The position numbers were made by a program, and so were the translations under genes. DNA of 57,506 bases, taken from contig PFCB01000016.1 of assembly GCA_002773135.1 (NCBI GenBank), forward strand, positions 1-57,506. Direction: 5' to 3'. The DNA comes from Candidatus Magasanikbacteria bacterium CG10_big_fil_rev_8_21_14_0_10_47_10. Its GTDB lineage: Bacteria; Patescibacteriota; Patescibacteriia; Magasanikbacterales; UBA922. The notes below the pieces were generated by a model. It was given only the letters and a program-made list of their open reading frames with translations. It searched no databases and was not told where the DNA came from. Shown here piece by piece: positions 5,329 through 53,884 of the stretch; the first letter of the stretch is position 1; every line of letters begins with the position of its first letter.

Positions 5329-5719
5329 GGGGATGACAGGCTTCGATAGACGGATCCTGTTATCTGTATTTGCGTGTCGAGGGTGGCTTCCCTCGTACTC
5401 CAAAGCCAATCGATACGTGCAAACGTTATCACCCGAGCAAAGAACGCGTTGGCGCAAGCTTTTAGCGTTCCACAACTCGCAGCTGTTGTCGCGTAATTGC
5501 CACAACCATCGCTCTGATCATACTCGATAGTCAGAAACCGGTGTCAACCCAATCGAGCGTAGATGCGTGTGCCGCCTGATCACACCCATTGAACTCCTAT
5601 TCGGGCGCCTCTTGCACATTTTGTCACTTTCCAAAGTGTTAAGAGTACACAAATTGACTACACACGTAGACGGTACAGATAACCCGCGCTAGACCCGAGT
5701 TCAATTCTCGGCATCTCCA
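5329..5719 (+). ncRNA. ssrA: tmRNA; tag ORF 5419-5496 encodes ANVITRAKNALAQAFSVPQLAAVVA*
   Basis: 5' GGGGATG pairs with 3' CATCTCC+A; T arm ccgag-ttcaatt-ctcgg; GCA AAC resume codons; lies directly after smpB. CCA is not encoded. Confidence 0.95.
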
Positions 5720-5841
5720 CGAAAAATGGCGCAGCCATTTTGAGTGTCACGTGAGACCCGCAGGGTCTTTTACGTGACATCGTTACAATATTGACCAACG
5801 GCGCCATCTCGTGGCTCGCCGTGTGTATCAAAGAAGGGGCT

Positions 5842-6162
5842 ATGTATTATATTGTTTATGTACTTCAATCAAAAAAATACCCACACCGCAAGTACATTGG
5901 CTACACGGCAAATTTACAAAAAAGAGTGAAGATACATAATAGCGGGATGGTACACTCCACAAAAAAATGGAAACCTTGGATTCCTATTTATGCAGAGATG
6001 TACCTGGAAAAGCTGGACGCTCTTGGTAGAGAAAGATTTTTGAAGAGCGGATCAGGATGGAAATATATAAAAAAACAATTACGACACTATTTGAAACACC
6101 ATGAGAATCTCACGAAAGAAGCGACCAAAAAAACTATTGATCCCACACTACGCGATCAATAG
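5842..6162 (+). CDS. Small stand-alone GIY-YIG nuclease (UPF0213/YhbQ-like)
   Basis: YIVYVLQS...KYIGYT.NL.KR...HN.G...TK..KPW...Y.E......A..RE..LK motif set. Likely start ATG 5842; the 3' end overlaps infC by 62 nt. Confidence 0.9.
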   Translation: MYYIVYVLQSKKYPHRKYIGYTANLQKRVKIHNSGMVHSTKKWKPWIPIYAEMYLEKLDALGRERFLKSGSGWKYIKKQLRHYLKHHENLTKEATKKTIDPTLRDQ

Positions 6163-6649
6163 CAAAATTAGAACTGAACATGTTCGCGTTATTGACGTTG
6201 ACGGAAAAAATTTGGGTGTCATGTCAACAGCAGATGCCATTGCGCTGGCAAAAGAAAAAGAATTTGATTTGGTTGAAATCAACCCAAAGTCAGACCCACC
6301 TGTCGCGCAGATTACGGATTTTACGCATTTGAAATATCAAAAGGAAAAAGAAGCGCGCAAGCAGAAACAAAATACACGCTTGGGAGAAATCAAAGGAATC
6401 CGGCTATCCGTTCGCATTGGTAAGGGTGACATTGAGACCAGACGAAAACAATCGGAACGATTTCTGGAACGGGGTGACAAAGTCAAGCTGGAAATTATAC
6501 TGCGCGGCGCGGAACGGTTCAAAACCCCACTGGCCTACGAGGTCATCAGAAATTTCTATGCCCTCTTAAACGAAACATTTCCGGTCAAATATGAACAAGA
6601 GGCCACCCGCCAAGGAAACAAAATCACGGCAATTCTAGTAAAGAAATAA
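6101..6649 (+). CDS. infC: Translation initiation factor IF-3
   Basis: INSKIR.EHVRVID.DG.NLGVM, DLVEINPKSDPPV, K.IRLSVRIG.GD, GDKVK motifs. Confidence 0.97.
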   Translation: MRISRKKRPKKLLIPHYAINSKIRTEHVRVIDVDGKNLGVMSTADAIALAKEKEFDLVEINPKSDPPVAQITDFTHLKYQKEKEARKQKQNTRLGEIKGIRLSVRIGKGDIETRRKQSERFLERGDKVKLEIILRGAERFKTPLAYEVIRNFYALLNETFPVKYEQEATRQGNKITAILVKK

Positions 6650-8186: not shown

Positions 8187-8232
8187 GGACCGGTAGTTCC
8201 CGCCAGAGGCGGAGCCGTCCTTCAGCGGACAA
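8187..8232 (+). repeat. Partial 5' copy of tRNA-Asp with the D-loop replaced by a palindrome
   Basis: ggaccggtagttc is identical to the first 13 nt of the tRNA, followed by ccgcc-aga-ggcgg, agc, then gtcc-ttcagc-ggac. Confidence 0.75.
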
Positions 8233-8258
8233 CAGGTCATTAAGATAGAGAAAAAGGC

Positions 8259-8332
8259 GGACCGGTAGTTCAACTGGTTAGAGCACCGCCCTGTCACGGC
8301 GGAAGTTGCGAGTTCGAGTCTCGTCCGGTCCG
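8259..8332 (+). tRNA. tRNA-Asp(GTC)
   Basis: Acceptor GGACCGG/CCGGTCC; D arm; anticodon arm ccgcc-ctGTCac-ggcgg; T loop ttcgagt; CCA not encoded. Confidence 0.97.
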
Positions 8333-8349
8333 CCTTTTTCTCTAAACGA

Positions 8350-8403
8350 GCCCTGCCTGCCCCGCCAACCGACCGAAGGGAGGTTCGGCAGGGCCCGGTC
8401 CGC
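8350..8403 (+). repeat. Nested palindromes followed by a copy of the tRNA-Asp 3' end
   Basis: cctgcctgcc...aaccgaccgaagggaggtt...cggcagg, then ccggtccgc (the tRNA acceptor 3' strand). Confidence 0.65.
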
Positions 8404-51452: not shown

Positions 51453-52064
51453 CTATAAATTATAATCCGGTTTTTCAAACAACTGAACTCGTGTAACAGG
51501 CCAACCGCGTACCCAGGTGCGCCCTACAATAGAATCTCGCGCAATCGGACCAAAGCGCCGTGAATCAAAACTTGCGTCTCTGTTATCGCCGAGTACAAAA
51601 TACTGATCGCTTCCCAGCGTGTAGGAAATATCTCCCGGCGTTTCCTCAGTCAGATACTCCTCGTGGACAACCACACCTTGCAGGTTATCACTATTGTAAA
51701 TAATAACTTTATTGTCTTGTACTTTTACACGCTCACCCGGCAAACCTATGATTCTTTTTAAATAAAAATCTTTTTGCGAAACAGGCGGACGAAAGACAAT
51801 CACTTCCCCGCGCGCAGGTTCGCGGAATCGATATGTTAATTCATCGATAATAAGATAATCACTTGGCTCATATGTCGGTTCCATTGACTCCCCCTTTACA
51901 TAAAAGGGCTTAAACAAAAAATAACGGACAAGGCCAATCGTAATGGCCGCAAGGACAACAACCTTTATGAGCTCAAGAAAAAAAAGGCCGATAATACCAA
52001 AGACACTCCTGCCAACTTCTTGCTCTGTAATATCGTTTTGTTCGGACATAGCTTTTAGGCTCAA
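51453..52064 (-). CDS. lepB: Signal peptidase I
   Basis: V.G.SMEPT, YLKRIIGLPGE, YFVLGDNR..S.DSR.FG. Confidence 0.97.
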   Translation of the reverse strand: MSLKAMSEQNDITEQEVGRSVFGIIGLFFLELIKVVVLAAITIGLVRYFLFKPFYVKGESMEPTYEPSDYLIIDELTYRFREPARGEVIVFRPPVSQKDFYLKRIIGLPGERVKVQDNKVIIYNSDNLQGVVVHEEYLTEETPGDISYTLGSDQYFVLGDNRDASFDSRRFGPIARDSIVGRTWVRGWPVTRVQLFEKPDYNL

Positions 52065-52245
52065 TAGAGTGAAAAATAGGGCAATTTAGGTTCCCATTAT
52101 ACCCCCTTTCGGACAAAAATGCAAATATGAAAAAAAACAGCGAAATACTGCTTTTTTGGACATACTACAGCTCCTTTTCCCGTGTGGTAAACAGAGTCAT
52201 GGAATCAAAAGTGGGACCTTCTTCTTACCAGATATACCCCCCCTG

Positions 52246-52325
52246 CATAGTGGGCGATCCAAGAATCCCTGCCTGCCGGCAGGCAGGGAACTTGGGACAT
52301 TCCCGCATCACGTGCGGGACGCTCT
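52246..52325 (-). pseudogene. tRNA-Ile-derived 3' fragment with a 20 bp palindrome in the T loop and a substituted anticodon arm
   Basis: catagtgggcgatccaagaatc is identical to 52500-52521; cctgcctgccggcaggcagg (52268-52287) is inserted between TTC and GATT; the anticodon arm is replaced by tcccgc-N7-gcggga. Confidence 0.8.
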
Positions 52326-52504
52326 GTCCATAGAGGCTATATAGTAGTCTATTAACTGAGGCGGCAGCTTCCTTTTCTTTTCTTTTGTTTTATTTTTTAT
52401 TCGAATGATCTTGCGACAACAATAGAATCAAACCACCAACATCCTATCAAAACCATGGCCATTTTTTTCGCTTGCAAGCAGATAGAGAATCCCCCTCTTC
52501 ATAG

Positions 52505-52578
52505 TGGGCGATCCAAGAATCGAACTTGGGACCTCTACATTATCAGTGTAGCGCTCTAACCATCTGAGCTAATCGCCC
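52505..52578 (-). tRNA. tRNA-Ile(GAT)
   Basis: GGGCGAT acceptor; ctaca-ctGATaa-tgtag; ccaag-ttcgatt-cttgg; CCA not encoded. Confidence 0.97.
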
Positions 52579-52601
52579 GCTTTACTTATGTTGTCGTCGA
52601 T

Positions 52602-52632
52602 GGGACCTTCCCGCATCAAGCGCGGGACGCTC
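52602..52632 (-). repeat. tRNA-like anticodon-arm repeat, copy 2
   Basis: Minus strand gagcg-tcccgc-gcttgat-gcggga-aggtccc; the flanks equal tRNA-Ile GAGCG...AGGTCCC. Confidence 0.75.
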
Positions 52633-52641
52633 ATCGCGCCG

Positions 52642-52715
52642 TGGACTTAAGTGGATTCGAACCACTGACCTCTACAATGTCAATGTAGCGCTCTAACCAA
52701 CTGAGCTATAAGTCC
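52642..52715 (-). tRNA. tRNA-Val(GAC)
   Basis: GGACTTA acceptor; ctaca-ttGACat-tgtag; agtgg-ttcgaat-ccact; CCA not encoded. Confidence 0.97.
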
Positions 52716-52718
52716 ATT

Positions 52719-52746
52719 GACCTTCCCGCAATTTCGCGGGACGCTC
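52719..52746 (-). repeat. tRNA-like anticodon-arm repeat, copy 3
   Basis: Minus strand gagcg-tcccgc-gaaatt-gcggga-aggtc, ending 3 nt before the 5' end of tRNA-Val. Confidence 0.75.
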
Positions 52747-52806
52747 CAATTTGTGCCAATGAGTATACCGTATATGCTCGATCATTTCAAACGCCGCGTT
52801 CGACGT

Positions 52807-52835
52807 ACAATACTGTGGAATTATCTTTTTGTCAA
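52807..52835 (-). promoter_or_regulatory. Sigma70-type promoter for the tRNA-Val/Ile pair
   Basis: Minus strand TTGACA, 17 nt, TATTGT. Confidence 0.65.
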
Positions 52836-52839
52836 CCAA

Positions 52840-52864
52840 AATCCCCCGATTCGGTCGGGGGATT
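52840..52864 (-). terminator. Terminator-like hairpin after khpA
   Basis: aatcccccga-N5-tcgggggatt followed by a short T-run on the minus strand. Confidence 0.7.
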
Positions 52865-52877
52865 GTTTGGATAACTC

Positions 52878-53285
52878 TTAAATGCTTAGGGTATCGACAG
52901 CGCTTGTGTCGATGTCCATATCACGATCTCGGTCTCGGTCATGATCATGACCGCGGTCTGATGCACCTCTGTCATGATGGTCACGATCCATGTCATGATT
53001 CCGATCCATGCCGGAGGATCGTGGCGCCGGGCCACGGCCACCTTCGGGTTCATTAATCTTAAGATTTACACGTGCGTTATTTTTTGCACCGACAACTTTC
53101 AAAAGGGTGCGAATCGCGCGGGCGGTCTGTCCACGTCGACCAATAACATAGCCCATATCACCCGGATTCAAATCCAACGTGATAAGGACACCTCTCTCGT
53201 CAACCGTTCGTGTTGATTTTACATCATCAGGATTGTTGACAATTGCCTTTACGACATACTCGAGAAACGCTTGGTCTTGTTCCAT
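52878..53285 (-). CDS. khpA: KH-domain RNA-binding protein KhpA-like with an Asp/Arg/His-rich tail
   Basis: FLEYVVKAIV.NPDDV, DMGYVIGRRGQTARAIRTLL; follows rpsP. Likely start MEQDQA. Confidence 0.9.
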   Translation of the reverse strand: MEQDQAFLEYVVKAIVNNPDDVKSTRTVDERGVLITLDLNPGDMGYVIGRRGQTARAIRTLLKVVGAKNNARVNLKINEPEGGRGPAPRSSGMDRNHDMDRDHHDRGASDRGHDHDRDRDRDMDIDTSAVDTLSI

Positions 53286-53377
53286 ATCGAGCGAATTCTT
53301 TATTGAATAAAGGGCAAAGAACAATATGTTCTTGTGGCGACGAGTATAGCATGCAGGCAACGACCCGTCAACGAATA

Positions 53378-53884
53378 TTACACACCTGTTTTTTCTTCTC
53401 CGGTCTGCTGCCCCTGCTCGGCAGGAGCAGCTTCTTCCTCCGGCGACTCCTCTTGCGTAGAGGGAGCCTCTTCAGGAGCTGATTCCACCGGCTGTTGCGA
53501 CTCGTCTTCGTTTTCAGGGACATCTTGTTGTGCCACTTCCTCAGAAGCGGCAGCGGCACTCTTTGCCTCTTCATCAGCGGCTTTTTTTTCATCTAACTTT
53601 CCTCTCCGTCTTTTTGTAATGGTAATCGCTTTGGCTTTTTCTCCCGAAAGAATTCCCGCGTTCACAAGTAAATTATGAACGGTATTTGATGGCTGAGCGC
53701 CCATCGAAATCCAATGTTTGATGCGTTCAACATTCAAATCAATCACTTTATCTTTAAGAACAGGATTATATTTTCCCAACGTCTCAAGCGTCCCCGCCTG
53801 TGTGTCTTTTTCACGCTCAGACACAATCATGCGATATACCGGCGCTTTCTTTTTTCCAATTCTTTGAAGCCTTATTCGTAACAT
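53378..53884 (-). CDS. rpsP: 30S ribosomal protein S16 with a long acidic C-terminal extension
   Basis: MLRIRLQRIGKKK.P.YR.IV, LG.YNP, HWI..GAQPS.TV.NLL. Confidence 0.97.
   Translation of the reverse strand: MLRIRLQRIGKKKAPVYRMIVSEREKDTQAGTLETLGKYNPVLKDKVIDLNVERIKHWISMGAQPSNTVHNLLVNAGILSGEKAKAITITKRRRGKLDEKKAADEEAKSAAAASEEVAQQDVPENEDESQQPVESAPEEAPSTQEESPEEEAAPAEQGQQTGEEKTGV

Follow-up and report, generated by a model that had tools for sequence, protein, structure and literature searches.

Hairpin units and partial tRNA copies at the tRNA-Val/tRNA-Ile locus

In the present study, we analyzed a stretch of 57,506 nucleotides (the window; contig PFCB01000016.1, forward strand) from Candidatus Magasanikbacteria bacterium CG10_big_fil_rev_8_21_14_0_10_47_10, in which three short hairpin units lie around the genes for tRNA-Val(gac) and tRNA-Ile(gat). 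An earlier note on this DNA had pointed out three hairpins with tRNA flanks, an exchanged arm and variable loops lacking U33, one of them 3 nt from the 5' end of tRNA-Val, and this description is borne out by our analysis. The units, listed with the other features of the locus in Table 1, read on the minus strand, which is the sense strand of both tRNAs. Their flanks are those of both tRNAs, in which the arm reads GAGCG-CTACA-loop-TGTAG-AGGTC; what was exchanged is therefore the anticodon arm. The exact pattern TCCCGC-N4-10-GCGGGA matches the window three times (52301-52319, 52609-52627 and 52724-52741), all within 450 bp, whereas 0.03 copies are expected by chance and none of 100 shuffles reached three or more. 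The end of copy 3 is separated from G1 of tRNA-Val by three nucleotides (AAT).

Table 1. Features of the tRNA-Val/tRNA-Ile locus in the window
Feature	Coordinates	Strand	Remarks
Promoter-like site	52762..52790	-	TTGAAA-17-TATACT, sigma-70-like, before copy 3; consensus scan, 10/12 matches
Copy 3, hairpin-patched middle of tRNA-Val 5' pseudo-copy	52746..52719	-	GAGCG TCCCGC GAAATT GCGGGA AGGTC; aligns with the upstream hairpin of L153
tRNA-Val(gac), intact	52641..52715	-	ARAGORN; Rfam 52642-52715, 75.4 bits
Copy 2 with remnants, decayed tRNA-Ile 5' pseudo-copy	52601..52640	-	in the Val-Ile spacer
Copy 2	52632..52604	-	GAGCG TCCCGC GCTTGAT GCGGGA AGGTC
tRNA-Ile(gat), intact	52504..52578	-	ARAGORN; Rfam 52505-52578, 73.8 bits
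Nuclease stub, small GIY-YIG	52428..52502	-	ATG 1 nt past the called tRNA-Ile 3' end; MKRGILYLLASEKNGHGFDRMLVV then stop
Pseudo-tRNA-Ile, downstream copy	52251..52341	-	91 nt; centre is copy 1, replacing the anticodon arm
Copy 1	52324..52296	-	GAGCG TCCCGC ACGTGAT GCGGGA ATGTC
Perfect 20-nt palindrome	52268..52287	.	CCTGCCTGCCGGCAGGCAGG; at GTTC^GATT of the pseudo-tRNA-Ile T loop, the exact insertion point
Second nuclease-start stub	52225..52248	-	ATGCAGGGGGGGTATATCTGGTAA; directly after pseudo-tRNA-Ile

All three units are predicted to form 7-bp hairpins as single-stranded DNA. The stems carry no change at 36 sites, against about six changes at 20 loop sites (our own count; Fisher p = 0.001). 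With C, C and A at loop position 2, none of the three has U33. Both ARAGORN and the Rfam tRNA model (E up to 10) rejected all three units and called only the two intact genes; the Rfam search of positions 51500-53500 at the same limit gave these two tRNAs, the other matches being antisense artefacts or noise. A detector-accepted cloverleaf and a 7-nt loop with U33, as expected of a functional tRNA, are therefore not found in the units. The loops of both Ile-derived copies (1 and 2) end in TGAT, that is, U33 plus GAU. A weak resemblance between the hairpin loop and the anticodon loop of the neighbouring tRNA was observed (mean longest common substring 2.53, versus 2.26 +/- 0.07 after shuffling; common substrings of 4 nt or longer in 14 cases versus 6.9 expected).

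The earlier note regarded the units as free-standing mimics of the anticodon arm; instead, we found that they are the patched middles of partial copies (pseudo-copies) of tRNA-Val and tRNA-Ile in a decayed small GIY-YIG nuclease cassette. In the downstream pseudo-tRNA-Ile, a degenerate D arm leads into copy 1; then come ATGTC, a T arm of CCAAG/CTTGG, ATCGCCC as the acceptor 3' strand, and finally the discriminator. The final 18 nt of this pseudo-tRNA are 100% identical to tRNA-Ile, and the trailer CTATG.AG.GGGGG is common to both. The predicted fold has a z-score of -5, and neither ARAGORN nor Rfam called it as a tRNA. Upstream of copy 2 lies GGCGCGAT, similar to the acceptor 5' strand of tRNA-Ile (GGGCGAT), the D arm being deleted; downstream of it comes CCA, the first bases of the Ile T stem. 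After copy 3 the sequence is AATGG, where the T stem of tRNA-Val has AGTGG. Before copy 3, the -10 box of the promoter-like site overlaps a possible decayed D arm of the tRNA-Val pseudo-copy (TATACTCATTGG versus TATAGCTCAGTTGG), although this likeness, judged by eye and from coordinates, is weak. If the predicted promoter is used, copies 3 and 2 lie within the precursor of the tRNA operon; the evidence for a promoter of the tRNA-Val/tRNA-Ile operon consists of the consensus match.

The gap of about 160 nt between tRNA-Ile and its downstream pseudo-copy contains nothing except the start of a nuclease gene. The sequence after tRNA-Ile, ATGAAGAGGGGGATTCTCTATCTGCTTGCAAGCGAAAAAAATGG..., translates as MKRGILYLLASEKNGHG... 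and reaches a stop after 24 codons, the remainder of the gene being lost. A blastn search aligned this stub with the junction on contig C3, in the same genome, at which tRNA-Lys(ttt) adjoins an intact GIY-YIG gene (39/48 nt, 81% DNA identity, E = 2e-7), and in a tblastn search eight of 13 residues were identical to the C3 protein. The second stub matches the C3 junction at 18/20 nt. Two stubs imply an earlier tandem [tRNA-like + nuclease gene] x 2. Along the minus strand, the locus thus runs from the patched Val copy (copy 3) through tRNA-Val, the patched Ile copy (copy 2), tRNA-Ile, the stub and the patched Ile 3' copy (copy 1) to the second stub.

The homologous locus in relatives

Among 40 genomes of other genera of the same family or order, 11 syntenic loci were read. 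Several of them retain the order KH-protein gene, tRNA-Val, tRNA-Ile and lepB, and none of the 11 has the hairpins or the pseudo-tRNA. The absence of hairpins from these loci indicates that the units are a lineage-specific gain. In the window, the KH-domain protein encoded upstream of the tRNA operon (52878-53360, minus strand) has a low-complexity C-terminal tail rich in His, Asp and Arg (HDMDRDHHDRGASDRGHDHDRDRDRDMD).

For an unbiased comparison, we also collected 80 metagenomic loci anchored on LepB; the identity was 70% or less, and no contig was nearly identical to the window. Most of these are empty, and most of the roughly 57 loci that bear tRNAs lack hairpins. Small GIY-YIG open reading frames (ORFs) occur in 10 of the 80, and in seven of these 10 the ORF starts 0-5 nt after tRNA-Ile or tRNA-Val. 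Intact GIY-YIG genes start at the position equivalent to the stub in L153, L159, L199 and L216, and on C3. Locus L153 (LepB 64% identity) is the intact counterpart of the window locus and has the same order: Val 5' pseudo-copy, tRNA-Val, Ile 5' pseudo-copy, tRNA-Ile, GIY-YIG ORF and Ile 3' pseudo-copy. Each pseudo-copy of L153 contains one of three identical hairpins, CCCCGC-TGAATA-GCGGGG, and the counterpart of the copy 2 region reads GGGCGTGTAGCTCAGTTGGTTAGAGCG-CCCCGCTGAATAGCGGGG-AGGTCCCTGGTTCA. The ORF starts directly at the 3' end of tRNA-Ile, and its stop codon lies in the hairpin loop. The Val 5' pseudo-copy of L153 also contains the 20-nt palindrome, at the D loop.

Loci L165, L193 and L194 have a different form, GAGCG-CTACA-TTGA-[TCCCGAC..GTCGGGA]-TAGAGGTC, in which the hairpin lies in the anticodon loop and the 5' stem is present. 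This insertion form presumably represents an earlier state, so that the replacement of the arm probably arose by insertion followed by trimming. A simple insertion of a mobile palindrome into the anticodon loops was rejected for the window, because the CTACA/TGTAG stem is gone. Hairpin type also follows the nuclease subfamily in a small sample, KGPW proteins being found with YCCCG hairpins and MFYTYV proteins with GCTCGCC-TAG-GCGAG hairpins.

Nuclease genes, tRNA fragments and repeats elsewhere in the genome

The assembly (1.04 Mb) contains nine small GIY-YIG genes besides uvrC, several of which abut tRNAs. The intact gene on C3 (20242..20030, 82 aa) begins 1 nt past the called tRNA-Lys(ttt) end and stops within a Lys pseudo-fragment, GGTAGAGCAG-CCCCGC-TGTTTTAC-GCGGGG-ACGGAC. 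Another gene begins directly after a tRNA-Asn-like 3' end, another sits between tRNA-Met and tRNA-Gly, and another has 5' fragments of tRNA-Leu(gag) with the 20-nt palindrome as flanks. On C4 (8050-8393), a tRNA-Leu(gag) 5' fragment (positions 1-23) and the palindrome are found on both sides of a GIY-YIG gene; C25 (1-150) has the real tRNA-Leu(gag) at the contig start, after the same gene end as on C4, and these tRNA-Leu(gag)-palindrome repeats probably broke the assembly. A further small GIY-YIG gene lies in the window itself (5690-6220, plus strand; Pfam match 5848-6048). It encodes the protein MYYIVYVLQSKKYPHRKYIGYT..., has a GGAGG-like ribosome-binding site, and is preceded by a hairpin and an orphan tRNA 3' half, ACCCGAG-TTCAATT-CTCGG-CATCTCC-AC (about 5692-5720).

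At least 14 tRNA fragments match the intact tRNA beside them with 100% identity, and many contain hairpin insertions at the D-loop/D-stem junction, in the anticodon arm or in the T loop. Fragments of tRNAs on C1, C4, C7, C20, C23 and C33 also carry the 20-nt palindrome, in the T loop or the D loop, and it is present in relatives. Direct repeats that include a locus-specific flank were found on C14 (49 nt) and C28 (30 nt). Other remodelled loci differ in detail. At 8187-8403 of the window (plus strand), tRNA-Asp(gtc) has a fragment on either side: in the 5' fragment, GGACCGGTAGTTC-CCGCC-AGA-GGCGG..., the anticodon stem is retained and closed by a 3-nt loop, and in the 3' fragment, the T loop contains a longer element whose ends are CCCTGCCTGCC...GGCAGGG. 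On C7 (3940-4135, minus strand), an intact tRNA-Leu(cag) lies within the anticodon loop of a different, disabled tRNA-Leu gene, which has the acceptor GCCGGAG/CTCCGGC and a T loop with a 16-nt version of the palindrome. For the window locus, explanations by split or permuted tRNA genes, or by a tRNA nested in the anticodon loop of another as in this case, were considered and dropped. The tRNA-Phe with anticodon AAA called by ARAGORN on C9 (6643-6716) has a tRNA-like fragment (GGGGCATAGCTCAGTGGGAGAG...) just upstream and may not be a normal tRNA but a further remodelled locus. In the related genome G023 (C6, 38438-38562), 29-nt matches to the 5' part of tRNA-Val form a tandem array with a period of 48 nt.

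The genome also contains about 15 CGTC-tagged repetitive extragenic palindromic (REP) sequences, TGTCAT-TCCCGC-GAAA-GCGGGA-ATCCAGT. Nested hairpins were observed in two of them: on C30 (31623-31658), the 20-nt palindrome lies within the GAAA loop of one, and on C34 (1300-1345), a TCCCGC-ATCTGGT-GCGGG hairpin is nested in the loop of another.

The intact relatives of the stub are about 80-100 aa in length and consist of the GIY-YIG domain alone; they match Pfam PF01541, and the NCBIfam search gave no family at the cut-off. In the cassettes of the candidate phyla radiation (CPR), that is, L153, L159, L199, L204, L216, L174 and L177 together with C3 and C2:66 of this genome (G000), the start codon lies 0-5 nt past the 3' end of the tRNA or pseudo-tRNA, and no Shine-Dalgarno sequence is present. 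Where a GIY-YIG gene does not directly adjoin a tRNA, a GGAGG-like site is present. In Bacteroidota cassettes, the gap between tRNA and gene is 18-62 nt and includes a terminator-like hairpin. Because the start lies 0-5 nt past the tRNA without a Shine-Dalgarno sequence in nine cassette copies and in the relic, the gene of the CPR cassettes may be expressed as a leaderless mRNA after 3' processing of the tRNA.

Distribution of the flanked hairpin in other genomes

We scanned one genome per species for the exact flanked motif; the matches listed comprise at least 119 loci with 189 copies, and the counts given in this section refer to them. Most loci belong to Bacteroidota (Chitinophagaceae, Flavobacteriales, Saprospiraceae and Chryseobacterium), and a few to Saccharibacteria, Peribacteria, Ignavibacteria, Acidobacteria and Desulfobacterales. 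Extended tRNA-like flanks are present in 157 copies, which supports the derivation of the units from tRNA, while 11 of the 189 lie inside a called tRNA. The nearest tRNA is nearly always Ala, Val or Ile (Ala(ggc) for 89 copies and a Val for 23). Where a copy lies beside, and not inside, a called tRNA within 700 nt, it is on the strand of that tRNA in 131 of 134 cases. The earlier note had held that its view would fall if the motif occurred mostly away from tRNAs and without the tRNA flanks, and this was not what we observed. Upstream (5') and downstream (3') pseudo-copies are equally frequent (66 and 65). Loop lengths range from 5 to 8 nt, and the 7-nt loops of other genomes tend to have AC-NNN-GT, a sequence that makes the stem longer.

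With a profile of small GIY-YIG proteins, 58 ORFs were found in these loci. A GIY-YIG ORF lies within 400 nt of 67 copies (39 loci), often only 0-3 nt away, and shares its strand with the copy in all 67 cases. In L013 (Chryseobacterium) and L057 (Flavobacteriales), the real tRNA-Ala is followed by tandem units, each made up of a hairpin-bearing pseudo-tRNA-Ala, a terminator, and a GIY-YIG ORF whose end lies in the next pseudo-tRNA. The features that define this class of cassette are a small GIY-YIG ORF right after a co-oriented tRNA, a patched partial tRNA copy, and recurrence in unrelated genomes; all three are found here, with the nuclease gene at the window locus present as a relic.

Origin of the units and alternative explanations

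We consider it quite probable that the three hairpins are a conserved module of a tRNA-linked minimal GIY-YIG nuclease cassette, which survives here as a decayed relic. This explanation is carried by the anatomy of the locus, the relic of the gene, the intact syntenic counterpart L153, and the association and co-orientation of hairpin and nuclease across genomes. In its intact form, the cassette would consist of a gene for a GIY-YIG protein of about 80-100 aa that starts 0-5 nt past the 3' end of a tRNA and whose coding region ends inside a partial copy of the same tRNA, with the anticodon arm replaced by (T/C)CCCGC-loop-GCGGG(A/G); more hairpin-patched 5' copies would precede the intact tRNAs. 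By analogy with the systems compared below, we infer that the hairpin is a DNA site bound by the nuclease, as in Ssn proteins on single-stranded NTS hairpins, and that breaks at or near the loops of the cloverleaf in tRNA genes are repaired by recombination across short tRNA homologies. Such repair would duplicate parts of the tRNA, install the hairpin and, as in SegB, could amplify [tRNA + nuclease] in tandem. Occurrence of the hairpin and of the 20-nt palindrome in T loops, D loops and REP loops as well suggests events at hairpin loops of single-stranded DNA. At present, copies 3 and 2 are probably passive passengers of the tRNA precursor that are trimmed off.

Several observations weigh against this explanation. 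Only 13-24 nuclease codons survive locally, and the local link therefore rests on a short match and on the synteny with L153. The motif is rare in Patescibacteria (2/401 genomes including this one); its presence in one of 400 other genomes sampled means that it is not a CPR-wide feature. Among the listed motif loci, 80/119 have no GIY-YIG ORF within 400 nt; these could be solo arrays of hairpin-patched tRNAs, such as L016 and L026, and the hairpins may spread or persist without the gene. As for the likeness to Ssn proteins, the best structural match of the nuclease is the UPF0213 protein 1ZG2 (E = 1e-5). Furthermore, the SRM consensus, HGTCWYN(0-2)YYVSBRHN(0-5)WNVSBRGN(0-2)RNCYNB, run as a regular expression with a positive control that matched, finds 15 sites in the genome, 14 of which are TGTCAT(T/C)CCCGC REPs, and it matches none of the three units of the window nor the hairpin of L153. 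The repeats on C14 and C28, with their locus-specific flanks, fit none of the models offered here in detail.

One alternative is that the units are a variant of the CGTC-tagged REPs, spread by a REP-associated tyrosine transposase (RAYT) or an Ssn gene elsewhere, that landed by chance in the pseudo-copies and has no relation to the stub. The 6-bp core is indeed identical to that of the roughly 15 SRM-fitting REPs, a similar hairpin is nested in the REP on C34, and one Y1 transposase homologue is encoded on C8. However, CGTC-1 REPs (PMC3733652) have an AT pair, a 4-nt loop and a CCA tail, none of which is present in the units, and the units fail the SRM pattern; moreover, tRNA-derived flanks accompany at least 157 of the 189 listed copies across phyla, and the copies are co-oriented with the adjacent GIY-YIG gene wherever it is present. 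This alternative is partly compatible, although a plain REP variant leaves the tRNA flanks and the co-oriented nuclease unexplained, and we regard it as unlikely.

Another alternative is that the hairpins function in the precursor RNA, either as guides for RNase P or RNase Z, as insulators, or as decoys titrating an anticodon-directed enzyme. Copies 3 and 2 lie between the predicted promoter and the tRNAs and would be transcribed, the stems are perfectly conserved while the loops vary, and the hairpins are predicted to be stable. Nevertheless, the 11 syntenic loci, like most of the roughly 57 metagenomic loci that bear tRNAs, have the operon but no hairpins, the distance from hairpin to tRNA 5' end differs (3 nt in the window versus 23 nt in L153), and copy 1 lies about 180 nt downstream of tRNA-Ile, past the gene stub. 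The loops of 5-8 nt lack U33, and the presence of the same hairpin in T arms and REP loops points to behaviour at the DNA level. We consider a function of this kind quite improbable. Of the three ideas in the earlier note, a role in precursor processing and decoy anticodon arms are both unsupported, in view of the hairpin-free operons of relatives, the variable loops and the rejection by tRNA detectors; repeat mobility came closest.

Integrases of prophages and other integrative elements leave partial tRNA copies beside the intact gene, sometimes in arrays, and a 6-bp inverted repeat with a 6-7-nt spacer resembles the core of a tyrosine-recombinase site. That the partial copies are displaced attL/attR sites of lost integrative elements, with the inverted repeat as the recombinase core, is the least probable explanation: although partial 3' copies downstream of an intact tRNA are the usual signature, and 3' fragments lie about 3 kb downstream at C20 Glu and C26 Asn, no integrase or remnant was found between tRNA-Ile and the fragment at the window locus, nor an integrase gene between the C20 fragments, 5' pseudo-copies are as common as 3' ones, the C14 and C28 repeats include locus-specific flanks beyond what attP could carry, a hairpin replaces the anticodon arm, and the partner gene is consistently a co-oriented minimal GIY-YIG nuclease.

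Returning to the nuclease cassette, the observations may be joined in a more extended model, which we put forward as tentative and rather doubtful. The cassette would be a two-part mobile system of the Ssn/NTS kind with tRNA genes as landing pads, in which a nuclease of about 85 aa reads the (T/C)CCCGC hairpin and cuts the D, anticodon and T loops of extruded cloverleaves as well as REP loops; repair would install nested hairpins and long local duplications, and in Patescibacteria the leaderless mRNA would be freed by RNase Z. Given the perfectly kept stems, the relic hairpins would, in this model, still be used in trans by the intact C3 paralogue.

Comparison with known systems

Among the closest known systems are the Ssn nucleases. 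Neisseria SsnA binds NTS hairpins on single-stranded DNA, the genes of the family are flanked by hairpins, and the loop sequence is not essential (PMC11893778). The present cassette shares with them a single-domain GIY-YIG protein of about 90 aa and short GC-rich hairpins on both sides of the gene. The core of the units, TCCCGC/GCGGGA, is identical to the NTS/dRS3 core (ATTCCCGC...GCGGGAAT), and the loop tolerance of SsnA matches the variable loops of the units. In contrast, our units sit inside partial tRNA copies and the gene abuts a tRNA, whereas the report on Ssn makes no mention of tRNA (PMC11893778).

In CGTC-1 REPs (also called dRS3 or RPE-6), the stem is 8 bp long and begins with AT, the loop is 4 nt and the tail is CCA; these REPs occur extragenically or in frame within genes (PMC3733652). 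They have the same 6-bp core, the string CGTC arises at the unit junction GAG-CG|TC-CCGC, and members of the family are present in this genome. The units, however, do not have the features of that class; they have a 6-7-bp stem, loops of 5-8 nt (6-7 nt in the window), tRNA-derived flanks and an AGGTC tail.

SegB of phages T4 and T6 is a free-standing GIY-YIG homing endonuclease encoded in a tRNA gene cluster (PMC2330249, PMC13096335). Experiments showed that SegB drives tandem amplification of [tRNA + segB] by way of microhomology that the 3' end of segB shares with the tRNA 5' end (PMC13096335). In both systems a nuclease gene lies among tRNA genes, SegB cleaves tRNA-containing DNA, and its amplification mirrors the overlap of ORF and pseudo-tRNA and the tandem units in L013, L057 and L174. 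SegB differs in being a phage protein of larger size, whose DNA-binding part is separate, and in having neither a conserved hairpin nor a replaced anticodon arm, whereas the cassettes are chromosomal and occur in bacteria of several phyla. A SegB-type enzyme combines GIY-YIG with a DNA-binding region in about 200 aa or more, a size that the relatives of about 80-100 aa do not reach.

Our full-text literature search gave no account of small, tRNA-linked GIY-YIG cassettes accompanied by hairpin-patched pseudo-tRNAs. With the cassette, what had appeared as a trio of anticodon-arm mimics becomes a readable fossil of a selfish element, tied to an intact syntenic copy. If the nuclease reads the hairpin, the cassettes would provide a large natural set of tiny hairpin-directed DNA nucleases, and they would explain much of the clutter at tRNA loci in Bacteroidota and some CPR genomes, a source of missed or false tRNA annotations. 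Furthermore, the cassette links subjects that have been kept apart in the literature, namely the Ssn/SRM nucleases, the tRNA-amplifying nucleases of the SegB type, and the widespread partial tRNA copies that have usually been regarded as scars of integrases.

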